This document shows, piece after piece, positions 10,566 to 28,517 of a stretch of DNA of 29,799 nt. Below the pieces are notes generated by a model that saw nothing but the letters and a program-made list of their open reading frames with translations, ran no database searches and was not told where the DNA came from. Within the stretch, counting starts at the first letter, position 1, and each line of letters starts with the position of its first letter. Source of the stretch: a virus (lineage: Duplodnaviria > Caudoviricetes); the IMG/VR virus record IMGVR_UViG_3300013131_000177, positions 1 through 29,799 of that record, one strand, 5' to 3'. The translations under genes and the position numbers were made by a program.

Positions 10566-11447
10566 ATGGGATTTGTAACAAAGGCAGAAGCATATATCAT
10601 CTCGGAACTCAAATCAACGATTATGGACCGCCTTCATATGGGCGGTTCTTTCTTGCAGCAGATTCCTACTGTAACGATCGGTGGGCTTCCTGTTGCAATT
10701 AAACAAGGTGGGCTTGGAGCGATCGGCGGTCAACTTGGTGGAGTCATCTCTCAAGTTCAGGCTGCTGCTGGAGCAATCACTGCAATCACTCAAAATCCGA
10801 TGTCGTTAGTAGAGGGTGCAATTAATTCTCAAATTTCAGGATTGAGCAGTCAAATTACTGCTGTTACTGGCAAACTTTCTGGTGGACAATTAAGCGCATT
10901 AACCAACGGAATCACTGGTATACAGAATGCATTAACAGATTTTCAGGCTCACACTCAATTACTTTCAGGTCAAGCAACCTCTATTTCAGATACGATTCCT
11001 GATTTTAACAAACTTAAAGACGCAGGAAGCAATCTGGGTGGATTGACAGGAGAAAGCCCAAGTAGTTTTATTCAAAATACTGCTTCTGCACTATTCTCAG
11101 ATACTAAACTAACGAACATATCCAACTCTCTACAGTATGTGGTTGGACAAAAATTAGATCAAATCTCTCGATTAGATTCAGTTACCGATGCAGCGCAAAT
11201 AACCACTCTTGTTGGCGATTGCCAACTCCTTATAAATAATCATGCAAATACTATGAACGCTGTGGTTGACTCTGATACGCATGCATTTAACGAAGCAAGC
11301 AATACTTTAACCTCTGCAACAACAGTAGTTGGTATGGCTTCTCAGTTCACAGATACAAGCAGTGTCGGATATGCATTGTTTAGTCGAATCGGAACTGCGA
11401 GCGCAAAGACGGCATTTAATACTGCAGCGTCTGCAACGGAAACCTAA
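10566..11447 (+). CDS. Hypothetical virion protein, Ala/Gly/Ser/Thr/Gln-rich, probably helical
   Basis: 293-aa ORF with a strong AGGAGG RBS, tightly packed between gp5 and gp25. No family recognised. Confidence 0.8.
   Translation: MGFVTKAEAYIISELKSTIMDRLHMGGSFLQQIPTVTIGGLPVAIKQGGLGAIGGQLGGVISQVQAAAGAITAITQNPMSLVEGAINSQISGLSSQITAVTGKLSGGQLSALTNGITGIQNALTDFQAHTQLLSGQATSISDTIPDFNKLKDAGSNLGGLTGESPSSFIQNTASALFSDTKLTNISNSLQYVVGQKLDQISRLDSVTDAAQITTLVGDCQLLINNHANTMNAVVDSDTHAFNEASNTLTSATTVVGMASQFTDTSSVGYALFSRIGTASAKTAFNTAASATET
11231..11238 (+). promoter_or_regulatory. Candidate late promoter for gp25-gp6
   Basis: Exact TATAAATA about 210 nt upstream of the gp25 start. Confidence 0.55.
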
Positions 11448-20782: not shown

Positions 20783-23700
20783 ATGGAATTTAATATTGAA
20801 CCGTATTATGATGATTTCGACGATAATGCGCGCGATAATAACTATATGCGCATTCTCTTCAAGCCAGGAAAAGCAGTCCAGGCTCGTGAACTTACGCAGA
20901 TGCAGTCCATTCTGCAGAATCAAATCAAGCAGTTCGGTGACCATGTTTTCCAAGACGGTTCTCCAGTTATCGGTGGTAATCTAACTCTAGACAATAAAGT
21001 TCGCCATATTAAACTTCTAGAAACTTTTAATAATGTGGATATTGAGATTGAGGACTTCGACCGTAAGGTAATTCGAAATACTGCTGGATCAGTTCAAGCA
21101 AAGGTTCTGGCGACATATTTCCCAACAGATGGTATTCCAACTCTTATTGTAAAGTATCTCACTGGTCTTGAGTTTCAAGACGGTGATATAATTAAGATTG
21201 CGGGGACAAGCACACAGGCTCAGTTGATTGCTTCGAATGCAAGCGGACAAGCCACCGTTGTTTCGATCAACGAAGGCGTTTTCTATGTCGATGGATTCTT
21301 TATTCAAGTTTCTGATCAAACAGTTGTTGCTGCAGCATACGATGTAACTGCAAATGTTAAGGTTGGTCTCGAAATTAATGATACGATTGTCGACAGCGAA
21401 ATTGACACAACTCTATTAGATCCTGCTCAAGGATCATTTAACTATCAGGCTCCAGGTGGCGATCGCTATCAGTTCAATCTAACTCTCTCAACTCGTCCAC
21501 TCGATTCTATTATCGACGAAGCACAATTCTTCGAATTGATGCGCCTTGAAAATGGTATCATTACTAAACAAGTCAAGTATCCAATTTATGCCGAATTAGA
21601 GAAAACTCTTGCTCGCCGCACCTTTGATGAATCTGGTGATTATACAGTTCGCCCATTCCGCGCATCTGTAATGGATGGCACTGACGCAAACAACTATACA
21701 ATCACTATCGAACCAGGAAAGGCTTATGTCAAAGGTTTCGAATTCGAAACTCTTGGACAAATTAAGATTGATGTAGAAAAGCCAAGAAGCGCAGCAGATG
21801 TGAAATCAATCGTCGATGTTGATGTTGACACTTCATCTGGAAATTACCTCTATGTGACTTCAATCGTCTCTCCAGGGCAAGGTAATGCGTTTATTAACAT
21901 CGCTGCGATGGAAAAAGTAGATATTCACTGCGGCACTGCAACACAAATCAATGTCGGTTTGGGTAGTTCTGCGGCAAACGGATTTATCTATCAAAATACG
22001 AAGATCGGTACAGCACGAGTTCGCGATTTTGTTCGCGACGATAATAGCACTGAATCAATTGTTGACAGCAATGGTGTTTATCGACTTTACTTGACTGATG
22101 TAAACATTGTTCCAAAAGTTCTCCGCGCTGCTGGCACACACACCTCAAATACAATCAACGTTGCCTCTGGTCAATTCATGCCACGCACGAATGGATTGTA
22201 TACAAACGTCTCGCTCACGATCCTTCCAGTTAAACTAGATGCAGTAGATAATGTATATGCTGCATTTGCAAATTCGTTCAATGTAAACGCGAATTCCAGT
22301 GGCACATTTACAAGTAAGATTGCAGTTGGTGACATTATTCGTGTCGGTGAGTTTGCAAAAGAAGTTCTTCGAGTCGACTCTGGAAATCTAGTTGTCAATT
22401 CTATGTTTACTTATGGATTGGCAAACTCTGCATCAAATCCAGTGCTTGTCTATAAGCAAACTGAGCACACTCAAAACGTCACTGGTCAAACACGAACTGT
22501 TTCTAATTCATGGTGGCAATCAAATTACGAAACACTACAACTAGATCGCCCATTTGATAATCTCGGTGTGCCAGATGCAAATACTGTATTCCAATTAAAC
22601 TTTGGCATCGATGACGCAGAGTGTATTGTGAGTGGTGTTGCAGTTGCAAATTCGTTGCTTGCGAATGTGAATGTCGCGATGAATGTTGCGATCGATTCTA
22701 AACTTATCACTGGTGATGTGGTGCTATCTGAATCGCAAGATAAAGTATTCATTTATCCATTACCTGGAACTTTTGTAAAGAGAACATCAATCAATAATGT
22801 TGATTATGAATATGATAAGTCAATTTTAAATAAAGCAGTTTCTGCAACTCCTGGTGTATTCATTATTGGTTCTGGTGATCTTTCAACAGCAACAATTCCA
22901 TGGTCTGGAACGACAAGTTCTATTCGTGATAATCTTGTTGTGATAGTTAGAGATAAGGGTGGATCGACGATACCAAATGGTGCAGTCCTCAATTTAACAT
23001 CAGCAAATGTTACAGTAACATCAACTCAAATTGATATTAATACTGGCGATACTGCACTACAGGCTGTAGATGTAATTCTTCGTGTTAAGGTTAATGATGC
23101 TGAAGATCTAATTCGTACAAAAACTTATTATGCAGATTCTTCATTCAGTGTTGATCCATTCACATACCCATCTTCAAATGCTACTCAGAATACTGAGGTG
23201 TCGATAACAAACCTTGGACATGTTGCTTCACTCAATCTAGCAAATGGATTAATTTGGCTTTCAAATCCAACTTATAATGCTGTCCGTCCAGGCGATTCAA
23301 TTTCATTATTTCTTCCAGATGTTGTGAAGGTTAATAAAGTATTGATGGGTAACACAACAAATTACCCAGATTCAGATAATGTCGAAGATATTACTGAGCG
23401 TTTTGTATTCGATTATGGACAGCGAGATGACAAGTATGATCACGCAAAATTAATTTTGAAGCAAGGTTATAGTTCACCTTCTGGTAAACTTCTTGTGCAT
23501 GTTAATTTCTATCACCATATTTTTTCCTCTACAAATAAACTATCATACTTTGGTCCAGCATCTTATGGTGCAGATCAATACGATGATAATCTAATTCCAG
23601 TGTATAATGACACAAACGGAAGAATTCTCTATTTGAGAGATTGTTTAGATTTTAGACCATCAAGACCAGTTGGTGATACTGCGGATACATTCAATGTTCC

Positions 23701-25321
23701 AGCATTCCCACAACCAGACTCAACAACTGAGTTATCATTTGATTATTACTTACCTCGCATCGACAAACTTGTATTGTCGAAGGATAAAGAGTTCCGAGTA
23801 ATTAAAGGCAAATCAGCAGTTATTCCATCTATTCCAAAAGATGACGATGACGCAATGACATTGTATACATTGCGTCTACCTCCATATGTAAATGATGTTC
23901 AGGATATTCGAACAGAATATAATGAGAATCGTCGCTTTACGATGAAGGATATTTCAAGTATTGATAAAAGAGTGCAAAAACTAGAGTTTTTTGTTTCGCT
24001 AAACAATGTTGAAAATCTAGCCATGGCAGATAAGACATTGTACGAAGATAATACAGAGAAAGAAAAGTATGGCATAGTTGGAGAAAACTTCCGCAACTTC
24101 TCAATCGCTGACTTTAAAGATCGAGGATTTAATTGTGCGCTTGATCAAGGTTTCTTGACACCAAGAACTACTACAGTTCCTCTAGCGTTTAAGAATAAAA
24201 CACTAGCAGATATGAAGTTGAATAAAAAAACAATCTCATTAAACTTCACTGAAACTCCAGCAATATCTCAAAACCTTGTTTCAGATAAAGCTGTTTCTGT
24301 TCAACCATTCTTGTTTGGACAATTTAATGGTATTGTTGAGATGAGTCCAGAAACAGACTTCTGGACTGACAATAAACTCAAACCAGAGATTATCACTGTC
24401 CCAGAAAGAGTTCGTATTGAACATACGACAGTAATTAAAGAAACAATCATTGAGAAACAGCCACAAATTACCATTGAACAGATATTCCCAACAAGAAATG
24501 TTGAGACTATTATTATTCGTGAGCCTGCAGTTAATCCAACTCCAGCACCACCAGATATAATTGTTGTGAAGCACCCAGATCCACCTGTAGTAGTTGAGCC
24601 AGAGAAGCCAGTAGAGCCACCTCCACCTGCGCCTCCACCAGAGCCAGCACCACTACCATGGGAACCACCTCCACCTCCTCCCCCACCACCAGAGATTATC
24701 GATATTGGAACTCCACCAGAAGTACCAATTTGGATTCCAATTGAACCACCACCTCCAGAACCAACACCAGTGGTTATAGTAACAACACCACCAGTTGAAG
24801 CGCACCGTGGTGGTGGCGGTGGTGGCGTCACGCGTGGTGGCGGTGGTGGCTGTGTTGTTCTAGAAAGTTTTGTTCCTTTGATTGAACAAAAACTCTATAA
24901 CGGCAAGCCTGTCACACAAGCGTATATGTTAATGGACGACATGGACATTCTTCTTGCAAATGAGCAATCACTCGAAACAGTAATGGGTAAAGTTTTGCGT
25001 AGTGGAATTGAATTACAACCATGCGTAAGAATCACAACTGAATGTGGAACTTCGCTCGTTTGTTCAACAACTGCTCCGATACCAACATTAAATAATGGTG
25101 TGTTGAAAGCACCAAACGTGCTTGATCAAATGGTTGGTGTTTACAAAAATAATGAGTCTGCTTGGAGTAAGGTTGTCAACGTTGAAGATGTTGGTGCGAA
25201 ATTCGTTCGCGGCATTGATACAGGCAATAACAGCTTCTGGGCTGGTGAAACAGAGGGTGCATATATCCTCCATCACAATATGCGAATGGAATATGACTCA
25301 TTGAACTTTGAGAAGCATTGA
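20783..25321 (+). CDS. DUF4815/VrlC-like large structural protein, N-terminal part, ending in a Pro-rich rod and a Hint domain
   Basis: FNIEPYYDDFD...RILFKPGKAVQARELTQMQSILQNQI, APGGDR, LARRTFDESGDYTV, PGKAYVKGFE, DFRP, YYLPRIDKL and RRFTMKDI match the large protein that follows gp8 in cyanophage-type T4-like phages. Confidence 0.88.
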   Translation: MEFNIEPYYDDFDDNARDNNYMRILFKPGKAVQARELTQMQSILQNQIKQFGDHVFQDGSPVIGGNLTLDNKVRHIKLLETFNNVDIEIEDFDRKVIRNTAGSVQAKVLATYFPTDGIPTLIVKYLTGLEFQDGDIIKIAGTSTQAQLIASNASGQATVVSINEGVFYVDGFFIQVSDQTVVAAAYDVTANVKVGLEINDTIVDSEIDTTLLDPAQGSFNYQAPGGDRYQFNLTLSTRPLDSIIDEAQFFELMRLENGIITKQVKYPIYAELEKTLARRTFDESGDYTVRPFRASVMDGTDANNYTITIEPGKAYVKGFEFETLGQIKIDVEKPRSAADVKSIVDVDVDTSSGNYLYVTSIVSPGQGNAFINIAAMEKVDIHCGTATQINVGLGSSAANGFIYQNTKIGTARVRDFVRDDNSTESIVDSNGVYRLYLTDVNIVPKVLRAAGTHTSNTINVASGQFMPRTNGLYTNVSLTILPVKLDAVDNVYAAFANSFNVNANSSGTFTSKIAVGDIIRVGEFAKEVLRVDSGNLVVNSMFTYGLANSASNPVLVYKQTEHTQNVTGQTRTVSNSWWQSNYETLQLDRPFDNLGVPDANTVFQLNFGIDDAECIVSGVAVANSLLANVNVAMNVAIDSKLITGDVVLSESQDKVFIYPLPGTFVKRTSINNVDYEYDKSILNKAVSATPGVFIIGSGDLSTATIPWSGTTSSIRDNLVVIVRDKGGSTIPNGAVLNLTSANVTVTSTQIDINTGDTALQAVDVILRVKVNDAEDLIRTKTYYADSSFSVDPFTYPSSNATQNTEVSITNLGHVASLNLANGLIWLSNPTYNAVRPGDSISLFLPDVVKVNKVLMGNTTNYPDSDNVEDITERFVFDYGQRDDKYDHAKLILKQGYSSPSGKLLVHVNFYHHIFSSTNKLSYFGPASYGADQYDDNLIPVYNDTNGRILYLRDCLDFRPSRPVGDTADTFNVPAFPQPDSTTELSFDYYLPRIDKLVLSKDKEFRVIKGKSAVIPSIPKDDDDAMTLYTLRLPPYVNDVQDIRTEYNENRRFTMKDISSIDKRVQKLEFFVSLNNVENLAMADKTLYEDNTEKEKYGIVGENFRNFSIADFKDRGFNCALDQGFLTPRTTTVPLAFKNKTLADMKLNKKTISLNFTETPAISQNLVSDKAVSVQPFLFGQFNGIVEMSPETDFWTDNKLKPEIITVPERVRIEHTTVIKETIIEKQPQITIEQIFPTRNVETIIIREPAVNPTPAPPDIIVVKHPDPPVVVEPEKPVEPPPPAPPPEPAPLPWEPPPPPPPPPEIIDIGTPPEVPIWIPIEPPPPEPTPVVIVTTPPVEAHRGGGGGGVTRGGGGGCVVLESFVPLIEQKLYNGKPVTQAYMLMDDMDILLANEQSLETVMGKVLRSGIELQPCVRITTECGTSLVCSTTAPIPTLNNGVLKAPNVLDQMVGVYKNNESAWSKVVNVEDVGAKFVRGIDTGNNSFWAGETEGAYILHHNMRMEYDSLNFEKH
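24521..24850 (+). repeat. Polyproline segment followed by a duplicated Arg-polyGly linker
   Basis: EPAVNPTPAPP...EPPPPAPPPEPAPLPWEPPPPPPPPPE...TPPVEAH-RGGGGGG-VT-RGGGGG, encoded by CCA/CCT- and GGT/GGC-rich DNA. Confidence 0.9.
24851..25279 (+). other. Hint (Hedgehog/intein-like) domain, 143 aa, no endonuclease
   Basis: Starts with Cys after GGGGG (CVVLESFVPL). Block B-like VRITTECGTSLVCSTTAPI, then KVVNVEDVG, block F-like VRGIDTGNNSFWAG, ending ILHHN. Mini-Hint length. Confidence 0.82.
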
Positions 25322-25340
25322 TTTCTAGGAAAATAAGAAC

Positions 25341-28300
25341 ATGATTAAAACAGAGTTTGGAACAGTAGTTGTCGACACAAATCTTGTGCCGTATATGCGC
25401 GCAAGAGACATCGAGTTCACAGGTAGAAATCTAAAGCCAGGAAAGATCGCTTCGGTCTTTTTTGACGATATCGCCGTAAACCGTTTCTGTCAGGTTGCAA
25501 ATAAAGTAGAAATTGACGCAAAGAAAGTTATTGCTTTTACTTCTAACTCTTCTACTGCACCAACTGCTGGAGAATTAATTTATCAAGGCAGTTCTAGTGC
25601 ATCAAACACATTCGCTGCAATCGTTGATACTTACTTTTCTGGTAACACCTCTTTCGTTATTCGTTCTCTTTCTGGAAATTTTGATCCTTCTGCATCAATC
25701 TTTGTCGAAAATGGATCATCAGTCACATACGCAAACTTAACAATTATTAGTTCTGTTGAGTATGACAACTCTGATTCATTTTATCCAGGAGAGGGGGTCA
25801 TTGCCACAGGTGCATTAGGAACTAAAGTGTTTGGTAAAGTTATTGCAACTAGTGGTGATGATGTTGTTTATCTAAATCAAAATTTTCATAATTTGAATGT
25901 TGTAGCAACATCTGGTTCAACATTATCAGACTACTCATCTAAATTTAGAGTCGGCGATCTTGTCTATCAAACAGCTGATGGTGCTGCAAGATACGATCTC
26001 GCAACATTCCGTGCTCATGTTGAGTATATTAATCTTACAGATGGTAAGTTGGCTTTAAAGCCAATCGATGGTTACATACTTGCTAATGAAACAAGCACAA
26101 GCACAAATGCGAATGTTAAATTGTGGTGTATCACTGATACCTCTTCACCAAAACCATTACATATTCAAACATTTAATCAAGGTGGATTTCCAGTTAATTC
26201 TTATCTTAAGAGTGCATCAAATACTGCAAATATTAAAATTACATCATACACGCACACATCAGGTGTTCTTGCCAATACATTAAACTCTGGATTGACACAG
26301 GTATTGTTACCAACGAACGCAAATACTGCAGATGCTGCAGGTAATTTGATGTACTTTACCTCTGGAACATCTGCTGGTACTATGAAATTAATCACTGCAG
26401 TGAGCGGAAGAACTGTAACGTTAGATTCTTCGCTTGATCTTGATTATGCATCAAATACACATTATTCATTCGGAAACTTTATTGTTGACGATACAGGTAC
26501 ACTAGCTGGCGTATTCCAAGTTCCAGCATTCCCTGGATTTAAATTTAAGACAGGCAACCGTGTTCTAACAATTACAGACACATCAACTGTTGATGATCCA
26601 GATTATGCAATGCGTGCTGCTGGTTCGTTTGTTTCTAGCGGTATTCTAAAAACAACACAAAGAATTCAAACAACACCAACTCTACCTCCAATGCCTGAGG
26701 TAGATGCTGATGCACTTGTTCGTCCATCTTCACCAGCAGAAAGATCATACAATTCAGATGCTGTTAAAAATCCGACAACTGCATCTACTGGATCAACAAC
26801 ACCTCGTATTAATCTAGGTGATGGATTGTCTCAGACATTCTTTACACCAAAACCAAAAATCAATGCGAACAAACAAGATTATGGCATGTTCGTGACTTCT
26901 GTTGACTTGTTCTTTAAGAGCAAACCATTAACATCACTCGGTTCAATGCAGCTTCCAATTACATTAAAGATTGCTGAAGTTCAAAATGGTTATCCAACAA
27001 AGAACTATCTTGCAGCAAAGACGATTCAGTGTAAGGATGTGAAAATTTCCAATGTGCCAAGCACAGGAAATACCGCAACAATTACTAAATTTACATTTGA
27101 CGATCCAGTGTTTCTAGAACCAGCTAGAGAGTATGCACTCGTTCTTGGATCTGATTCACCAGATTATGAAGTCTTTATTGCTGAGATTGGAGCCGATGTT
27201 CTTGGCGTTACACCAACTCGCCGTATCTCTGAGCAACCATATGCTGGATCATTCTTCCGCTCGCAGAACTCATCAACTTGGACACCTTATCAAAATCAAG
27301 ATCTGATGTTTGTAATTAATAAAGCAGTATTTCATAACTCTGGTGATGGTACTGCTCAGTTTGCTCTCGATTCTGCTCCAGAAGCAAACAATTATGTCGA
27401 TAAGGTGATTCTACTTGCTTCTGATCTAGATTTCCCAGTTACCGATCTTTCTTATAGTCTTCGTGGCATATATGCAAATGGCAGCGGAACTACTCAAGAA
27501 GGTGCTAGTGGTGTTCAGCTTACCAAATTTGCTCCGATTGAATATGGTGCATTGCTTGATAAATCAAATAAGACTTCAATCAATCGCCGTAAATTGCTCA
27601 AAGGTGATGCAAATAGTTTCATCATGACTCTGACGATGTCTACCTCAGATTCAGATATCTCTCCGATTGTGAACATTGAACGACTTGGATTAACTGCATC
27701 AAGATATCTTGTTGATAACGCAGGAATTCCAAATACAACTATTTCTCTATTGGGTTATGGTACTGGATACAATGCAGTTATCGGTACTGCAAATGTAACC
27801 AATGGACAAGAAAAAGTTATTGGCACGAATGATGCTGGAATTACTGCAAATGCTGCAGCCTATCGTCAGTATATTTTTGCAAACAGCCATAATATCGGAT
27901 TTTATGCAATTAATATTTCTGGTGGTGGTGGAACTGGCGCAAAGGGTTTTGCTGTTGCAAATACTGATGGGACGGAAGTTGTAAGTTATGTTGTCATTAC
28001 AGATCCTGGTAGTGGGTATCTAACCACTCCAGCAATTCAAATTGTTTCTGGTAATGCAACACCAAACGCCAATGCAACAGCAGTTATTGCTGGCGAGACA
28101 GGTAAGTCTGGCGGTAATATTCAAGCCAAGTATATTAGTCGTGAGATCGTCCTTGAGGACGGATTCGAATCAGGCGATATGAGAGTGTTTATGGACGCGA
28201 TTCGTCCAACTGGAACAGATATTAATGTTTATTACAAGGTCAAATCTGTAGAGGATAACGATCGTTTTGCAGATAAGAGCTGGCAGTTGATGGAAAAGGT

Positions 28301-28517
28301 GAAGAATACTTATTCTAAGAGCGCAAGATCTTTGATTGGATTAGAGTTTAGACCAGATCTGCTAGAGAACAGACTTTCTTATGTCGAAAATGGTGTAACA
28401 TATCCAATCGGTGGTAAGTTTAAGTCGTTTGCAGTTAAGGTTGTTTTAATGACAACTGACGCTTCGTTAGTACCAAAGGTTAGGAATCTTCGTGTGATTG
28501 CAACTCCAGAGGGTTAA
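25341..28517 (+). CDS. DUF4815/VrlC-like large structural protein, C-terminal part
   Basis: Own AGGA RBS. Begins GTVVVDTNLVPYMRARDIEFTGRNLKP...FFDD, then FKTGNR, DGLSQTF, TSVDLFFKSK, FTFDDPVFL, QPYAGSFFRSQNSSTWTPYQNQDLMF, AKYISR and FKSFAVKVVL...PKVRNLRVIA. Confidence 0.88.
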   Translation: MIKTEFGTVVVDTNLVPYMRARDIEFTGRNLKPGKIASVFFDDIAVNRFCQVANKVEIDAKKVIAFTSNSSTAPTAGELIYQGSSSASNTFAAIVDTYFSGNTSFVIRSLSGNFDPSASIFVENGSSVTYANLTIISSVEYDNSDSFYPGEGVIATGALGTKVFGKVIATSGDDVVYLNQNFHNLNVVATSGSTLSDYSSKFRVGDLVYQTADGAARYDLATFRAHVEYINLTDGKLALKPIDGYILANETSTSTNANVKLWCITDTSSPKPLHIQTFNQGGFPVNSYLKSASNTANIKITSYTHTSGVLANTLNSGLTQVLLPTNANTADAAGNLMYFTSGTSAGTMKLITAVSGRTVTLDSSLDLDYASNTHYSFGNFIVDDTGTLAGVFQVPAFPGFKFKTGNRVLTITDTSTVDDPDYAMRAAGSFVSSGILKTTQRIQTTPTLPPMPEVDADALVRPSSPAERSYNSDAVKNPTTASTGSTTPRINLGDGLSQTFFTPKPKINANKQDYGMFVTSVDLFFKSKPLTSLGSMQLPITLKIAEVQNGYPTKNYLAAKTIQCKDVKISNVPSTGNTATITKFTFDDPVFLEPAREYALVLGSDSPDYEVFIAEIGADVLGVTPTRRISEQPYAGSFFRSQNSSTWTPYQNQDLMFVINKAVFHNSGDGTAQFALDSAPEANNYVDKVILLASDLDFPVTDLSYSLRGIYANGSGTTQEGASGVQLTKFAPIEYGALLDKSNKTSINRRKLLKGDANSFIMTLTMSTSDSDISPIVNIERLGLTASRYLVDNAGIPNTTISLLGYGTGYNAVIGTANVTNGQEKVIGTNDAGITANAAAYRQYIFANSHNIGFYAINISGGGGTGAKGFAVANTDGTEVVSYVVITDPGSGYLTTPAIQIVSGNATPNANATAVIAGETGKSGGNIQAKYISREIVLEDGFESGDMRVFMDAIRPTGTDINVYYKVKSVEDNDRFADKSWQLMEKVKNTYSKSARSLIGLEFRPDLLENRLSYVENGVTYPIGGKFKSFAVKVVLMTTDASLVPKVRNLRVIATPEG

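Follow-up and report, generated by a model that had tools for sequence, protein, structure and literature searches.

The VrlC/DUF4815 proteins (PF16075, phrog_358) include the 1152-aa DUF4815 chain of PDB 9EUF, which we take to be the tripod protein of phage 812, because entries 9EUJ and 9EUK are given for the tripod in PMC13433997; in the same source, the tripod is described as a trimer on the baseplate. For domains of the Hint fold, three described cases are the closest. Type A BILs, defined by a C-terminal His-Asn without a nucleophile at +1 (PMC4031507), give mostly cleavage products (PMC4031507, PMC7664689). The BIL2 of Tetrahymena BUBL1 (6TMM/6Y75) forms an isopeptide with a lysine (PMC8616854), the only precedent for lysine-isopeptide splicing that we found. 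In the Ssp DnaB intein, replacement of the block-B histidine (His73Ala) in combination with glycine at −1 abolishes the N-S shift (PMC6333167).

Our literature search, which covered few subscription journals, turned up no description of a split VrlC gene or of a virion Hint with a lysine tail. Nothing on virion Hints is found in the available parts of PMC7824862, PMC5259590, PMC3556154, PMC12220804 and PMC5852040, and neither a split VrlC nor a lysine-tailed Hint appears in those of the VrlC background papers PMC4621102 and PMC7029224 or of PMC13433997. Here we describe a BIL-like Hint domain on a split member of this known baseplate family, encoded in a virus record of 29,799 nt (the window, meaning the whole stretch of DNA analysed); it is neither a class 1 intein nor a split intein.

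A split tripod gene in a T4-like baseplate cluster

By Pfam and PHROG matches, the 29.8-kb record holds a T4-like tail and baseplate cluster in the order tail-tube cap, gp53, gp5, gp25, gp6, two more wedge genes, and then ORF1 and ORF2, so that the split gene has the same place after the wedge genes as VrlC. The features around the break are listed below; stalk, linker, tail and spacer are read from the sequence, the Hint domain from its predicted fold.

20783..25321, + strand: ORF1, N-terminal half of the VrlC/DUF4815 tripod protein, 1512 aa (Pfam, phrog_358 and PDB 9EUF matches)
24293..24364, + strand: last family-conserved motif before the break (VSVQPF...DFW), at about residue 609 of the phage 812 chain
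24365..24808, + strand: stalk, β-rich and then proline-rich, in place of the 66–144-aa segment of fused relatives
24809..24850, + strand: poly-glycine linker (GGGGG) containing an exact duplication of 17 nt; the −1 position is Gly1356
24851..25279, + strand: Hint domain, 143 aa, from Cys1357 to His-His-Asn1499; block B is CSTTAP (Ala1431)
25280..25318, + strand: 13-residue tail after the Hint, with Met at +1 and the penultimate Lys1511 (codon 25313–25315)
25322..25340, + strand: 19-nt spacer with a Shine-Dalgarno-like AGGA at 25327–25330
25341..28517, + strand: ORF2, C-terminal half of the tripod protein, 1058 aa; the conserved motif resumes at 25359, at about residue 680 of the phage 812 chain (phrog_358 and fused-relative profile)

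Residues 2–1204 of ORF1 match positions 6–1115 of the phrog_358 profile (E 1e-206), and ORF1 also matches Pfam DUF4815 (E 2e-62, 211.9 bits against a cut-off of 30) and residues 5–608 of the 9EUF chain. The best stretch of ORF2 matches profile positions 1320–1585 (E 4e-105), collinear with the ORF1 match, and ORF2 is likewise collinear with the later part of the 9EUF chain. By a profile of 24 fused relatives, the break falls between about residues 609 and 680 of that chain. Compared with the phage 812 tripod, the window has two genes, this break, a long proline stalk and a Hint cap.

An earlier note on this DNA had reported two genes in different frames, 19 nt apart, the second with its own ribosome-binding site, and this is confirmed, the AGGA lying in the spacer; with a stop, a spacer and a change of frame, the window has no single polypeptide across the variable segment. 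The note had also let ORF2 begin at a conserved motif (GTVVVDT); the start lies six residues before it. Alignment to fused relatives bears out two further proposals, that the motifs on either side flank one variable segment in single-chain homologues (66–144 aa in 144 fused rows) and that the split lies inside it. The junction itself, which the note wished to see checked, was looked for in four metagenomic runs holding at least 60% of the window's words, all from lake water and one possibly the source. Contigs of three of them (X1, the possible source, X2 and X3) bridge the stop and spacer without an indel, while X4 gives no cover there. An assembly artefact was rejected, since these contigs cross the junction and relatives are split too; among the rows at least 52% identical with ORF2 in view, 23 of 23 distinct ones are split, the window included.

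Within ORF2, a stretch of about 320 aa (window 25520–26470, + strand) separates two motifs that lie close together in fused relatives. A structure model of the fused segment reached a pLDDT of 44 and was set aside.

A BIL-like Hint domain without the block-B histidine

The 156-aa end of ORF1 gave no match in Pfam (E ≤ 0.1), PHROG, NCBIfam (E ≤ 1) or PDB sequences. The AlphaFold model of the domain, built with 61 aligned sequences, is all-β with a pLDDT of 89.6, and a Foldseek search with it returned 54 matches at E ≤ 0.001; among the matches listed, all are inteins, BILs or hedgehog, the top one being the Ssp DnaB intein 1MI8 (E 7.7e-8). By predicted fold, the C-terminal domain of ORF1 is therefore a Hint domain, as the earlier note had supposed; Atlas feature scores of 0.86–0.89 for it were taken as leads only. 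Model confidence is poor in the tail (pLDDT blocks of 68 and 45). Hint profiles run over the six frames of the window found nothing beyond the ORF1 domain, and no Hint fragment on ORF2; a broader Hint profile gave, among the matches listed, close relatives only.

Among the homologues listed, Cys1 and the final His-His-Asn are each present in 120 of 120, and glycine occupies −1 in 119 of 120. The +1 residue is never cysteine (Val 79, Ala 15, Met 12, Thr 6, Ile 5, Ser 2, Lys 1; n = 120). The position of the block-B histidine, set by motif comparison with a second, sister Hint family (CSTTH or similar there, CSTTA here), is alanine in 121 of 121 (CSTTAP). Predicted fold and the Cys1357 nucleophile place the domain in the HINT superfamily. 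It is not a class 1 intein, having Met rather than Cys, Ser or Thr at +1 and no block-B histidine, nor a split intein, the whole Hint lying in ORF1 with no C-terminal intein fragment on ORF2. It agrees with the type A definition, and with the type A BIL of C. thermocellum (2LWY) it shares the Hint fold (E 8e-7), Cys1, the C-terminal His-Asn and the absence of a +1 nucleophile and of an endonuclease. It differs from it in having no PT-HINT match, in the block-B alanine, in a short tail with a near-invariant penultimate lysine, and in its location on phage structural proteins.

The ratio dN/dS, about 0.05–0.12 over six pairs, indicates purifying selection, and on this ground a decaying relic was rejected. 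Two more cysteines, Cys1414 and Cys1427 (window 25022–25063), are invariant in 121 of 121 sequences and lie on neighbouring predicted strands; their counterparts are jointly replaced in XacN1. A disulfide or a metal site is possible.

Splits with and without a Hint domain

VrlC rows were gathered in three locus scans and one further search, two of the scans keeping the best 80 of at least 600 rows each. The pre-break region is present in 212 rows, of which 144 are fused, 53 split and 15 not scorable; after removal of identical segments the numbers are 134, 34 and 13. No Hint is present in any of the 144 fused rows. Among the 34 distinct split rows, 23 have no Hint, six carry the Hint family of the window and five the second family, so that a Hint requirement for the split was rejected. 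Co-occurrence of split and Hint, a check proposed in the earlier note, thus holds in one direction: splits without a Hint are common, and the Hint is found only on split N-terminal halves. All 11 distant splits checked have their own start codon; four of them (L084, L131, L204 and L222) were considered as frameshifts, which was rejected on this ground, and were kept.

A quick tree with 76 rows places the majority of split rows on one side, where the outer ones are mostly without a Hint, and L084, L131 and L204/L222 among fused rows. This suggests, on a tree with long branches whose relevant forks are not starred, that the VrlC split preceded the Hint and arose more than once; within the core clade, the tree fits gain of the Hint as well as its loss.

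The window's Hint family is present on at least 155 longer proteins, 120 of which were used for clustering: 91 belong to an unnamed family, 22 are VrlC halves, four are gp5-like and three are singletons. Three of the four gp5-like carriers (P0037, P0067, P0107 and P0114, all ending in the cassette) match a hub PHROG. The unnamed phage family, of about 1000 aa and with no Pfam or PHROG match, has many members ending in CNCDCW (L009–L016, L223–L300). Some lineages have it fused, others split, and many of the N-terminal halves carry the same Pro-Gly-Hint-Lys cap. Its 53 distinct loci comprise 27 fused (none with a Hint), 17 split (10 with and seven without) and nine not scorable. A full-library profile built on full-length rows retrieved mostly this family, and was used for its fused and split counts only: 134 new representatives matched, 90 of them fused and without a Hint in any, and the remaining 44 represented by the N-terminal half only (seven with a Hint; some possibly fragments). 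First insertion of the Hint into a fused gene was rejected, as no fused row has one (0/144, 0/27 and 0/90).

These counts bear on a proposal of the earlier note, that the Hint joins ORF1 and ORF2 in trans. In three kinds of split (the window type, the unnamed family and phage DLP_6, described below), a Hint does sit at the break, and splicing by type A BILs has been proposed to use a free α-amine (PMC4031507). We nevertheless consider re-ligation very improbable, because homologues are routinely split here without a Hint (23/34 distinct VrlC rows, and also 7/17 split loci of the unnamed family). Moreover, ORF2 has neither a Hint fragment nor a conserved N-terminal cysteine, the conserved motif lies about 150 stalk residues away from the reactive glycine, and the same Hint is carried by gp5-like hubs.

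Other arrangements were seen at VrlC breaks. In a distant split allele (L066:4110–4419), the halves lie about 300 nt apart, enough to accommodate a small inserted gene. Splits at a second site bear another cap (L150, L152:6843–7319 and L186:6600–7250), consisting of a glycine-rich linker and a module of about 150 aa starting with an IIC motif, for which there is no Pfam match and which falls in unnamed viral Atlas clusters; it is possibly another self-processing cap.

A near-invariant lysine in the tail

The tail after the Hint (9–31 aa) has a penultimate lysine in 100 of 101 unique sequences, counted over related sequences rather than independent events, against 69 of 761 other ORF ends (a background of 9%); the lone exception has a lysine at +1. 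Proteins of the unnamed host family found later have it in 23 of 23. Arginine never replaces it, an exclusion confined to Hint-bearing tails, since the 24 Hint-less VrlC tails have lysine in five and arginine in six. The endings of these Hint-less tails are glycine-rich and acidic, and could either be left over from Hint loss or represent a host motif. Where a following ATG was found, the lysine codon lies 5–26 nt before it; this varying distance implies no ribosome-site constraint, and the lysine as a by-product of the ribosome-binding site was rejected. In the second Hint family, a lysine is found at +1 (six) or +2 (nine) in 15 of 15 sequences, including internal insertions with 99–280 residues downstream. 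As this family keeps the block-B histidine, its lysine is not a stand-in for it. The near-invariant lysine, the absent block-B histidine and the exchangeable cassette in unrelated genes had all escaped the earlier note.

We propose, with a probability of roughly 0.4, that the Hint, on the C-terminus freed by the split, is an optional, exchangeable cassette that excises itself and rejoins its tail through a lysine isopeptide, the two tripod halves being likely held together non-covalently. Cys1357 would form a thioester at Gly1356; the tail would then loop back, so that the ε-amine of Lys1511 could attack the thioester; and cyclisation of Asn1499 would set the 143-aa domain free, so that the stalk would carry the 13-mer as a cap, bound via a Gly-Lys isopeptide. 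Non-covalent assembly of the halves is suggested because Hint-less splits exist. For the lysine as a putative acceptor, the precedent is BIL2 (Foldseek rank 7–9), which shares the Hint fold (E 6e-7, 10–13% identity). The tail lysine is conserved in the window's Hint family, and its modelled position is unreliable owing to the low tail pLDDT. BIL2 differs in having ubiquitin-like flanks and a catalytic histidine. The flanks in the window are a Pro/Gly stalk and a 13-mer, no ubiquitin-like domain flanks the Hint in a Pfam search, and the isopeptide is a putative one. The first step would need a substitute for the block-B histidine, because in Ssp DnaB the exchange of histidine for alanine together with Gly-1 blocks the N-S shift.

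That missing histidine, together with the lack of a +1 nucleophile, leads to another scheme in which the Hint only trims itself off, the stalk ends in poly-glycine, and the tail lysine is a catalytic helper replacing the histidine. Such an outcome would agree with the cleavage products that prevail among BILs (PMC4031507, PMC7664689), and a few inteins lacking the histidine do compensate with another residue (PMC6333167). The second Hint family speaks against it, since there the histidine is kept and a lysine is still found at +1 or +2 in all 15 sequences, internal insertions included, which an acceptor role fits better. We regard cleavage alone as the main rival, if less likely than the isopeptide scheme; the cassette would then be a harmless passenger of modest interest.

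The same Ssp DnaB result, in which alanine at block B with Gly-1 is a dead combination (PMC6333167), may also be taken at face value: no N-terminal chemistry would occur, and the folded domain would stay on the virion as a cap, releasing at most the 13-mer by asparagine cyclisation. The two further invariant cysteines could be structural, and purifying selection fits any kept function. A purely structural cap, however, leaves unexplained why Cys1 and Gly-1 are near-invariant over three host families, and relatives lose or swap the domain, so that we hold a retained cap to be unlikely.

If the lysine is the acceptor, as in the isopeptide scheme that we favour, protein splicing through an isopeptide would take place in phages, without the most conserved histidine of inteins, and would do so in a family, unnamed in Pfam, PHROGs and NCBIfam, with at least 155 members. 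The known range of intein chemistry would be widened, and a small, self-contained ligation tool might be possible.

Exchange of the cassette

The Hint tree holds 54 sequences, taken from 118 matches with the second family thinned; its VrlC-hosted copies fall into three groups, one of which joins the gp5-hosted copies at a starred fork. An AU test rejected the ten Hints of the window's host clade as one clade (p-AU 0.019), a group that was picked after the tree; all 24 VrlC-hosted Hints as one clade were not rejected (p 0.067). Between L022 and L025, 49–60 of every 60 bases are identical in flanking windows, against 31–45 of 60 across Hint, tail and spacer; by this comparison, which is more direct than the tree, the Hint cassette was swapped between these near-identical phages. 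In the proposed scheme, spread would likely proceed by recombination, with Pro/Gly-coding DNA on one side and the start of the next gene on the other, and without a homing endonuclease. This suggests a way for intein-like elements to persist without homing, by occupying free C-termini of low complexity that gene fission has created.

The recurrence of the cassette on tail and baseplate proteins raises the question of whether the bond might be made between molecules: covalent cross-links would arise if a lysine on an adjacent subunit, on a different virion protein or on the host surface attacked the glycine thioester. BIL2 conjugates to other proteins (PMC8616854), the tripod is a trimer (PMC13433997), so that three stalks would lie close, and the long proline stalk gives reach. 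On the other hand, most split relatives do without the cassette, and it has its own lysine in cis, which makes intermolecular conjugation quite improbable. A wider version, also unlikely in our judgement, would see a widespread, exchangeable, enzyme-free module of poly-glycine, Hint and lysine tail on C-termini freed by splits, forming Gly-Lys isopeptides that link virion subunits to one another or to the host surface, akin to a ubiquitin-like covalent tagging on baseplates.

Two Hint families also occur in tandem on one protein, with a short lysine-plus-glycine linker between them (L227:6501–7328); further tandem Hint proteins are P0007, P0008, P0017, P0032, P0065, P0070, P0080 and P0121.

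The cassette in cultured phages

A search of cultured phages matched the Hint domain in 8 of 50,697 phage records. In Stenotrophomonas phage DLP_6 (KU682439.2), VrlC is annotated as two CDS, AAY80_267 and AAY80_268, the first of which ends in a proline stalk, a PKD domain, poly-glycine, a Hint without the block-B histidine (28% identical to that of the window) and an 8-residue tail with a penultimate lysine. The cassette is of the same type as the window's, whereas the split site differs, gene 268 starting at residue 491 of the window's ORF2. Since a cassette of this type is present on the VrlC of a cultured phage, the question is directly testable. The words 'intein' and 'Hint' do not appear in the available part of the DLP_6 paper (PMC5349666). 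Among five distinct copies in three cultured phages, the penultimate lysine is present in three, and a lysine at +3 or +4 in two. The repeated splits show that the tripod tolerates a two-chain state at two sites.

At loci L301 and L306 (PV764601.1), the Hints agree in their ends and tail, and an additional, shorter match follows just downstream.

Other features of the window

A scan of the window for promoters and terminators was close to chance (8 against 4.6 ± 2.2 expected, and 1 against 1.4 ± 1.2, respectively). Adjoining the hub and tail-tube genes, positions 206–2875 (− strand) encode a protein of 889 aa that matches glycoside hydrolase 19 and is likely a wall hydrolase associated with the virion. 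The window's gp5 has a long Ala/Gly-rich stretch at its own end, and between gp5 and gp25 lies a 293-aa ORF rich in Ala, Gly and Gln (10566–11447, + strand), with no Pfam or PHROG match.
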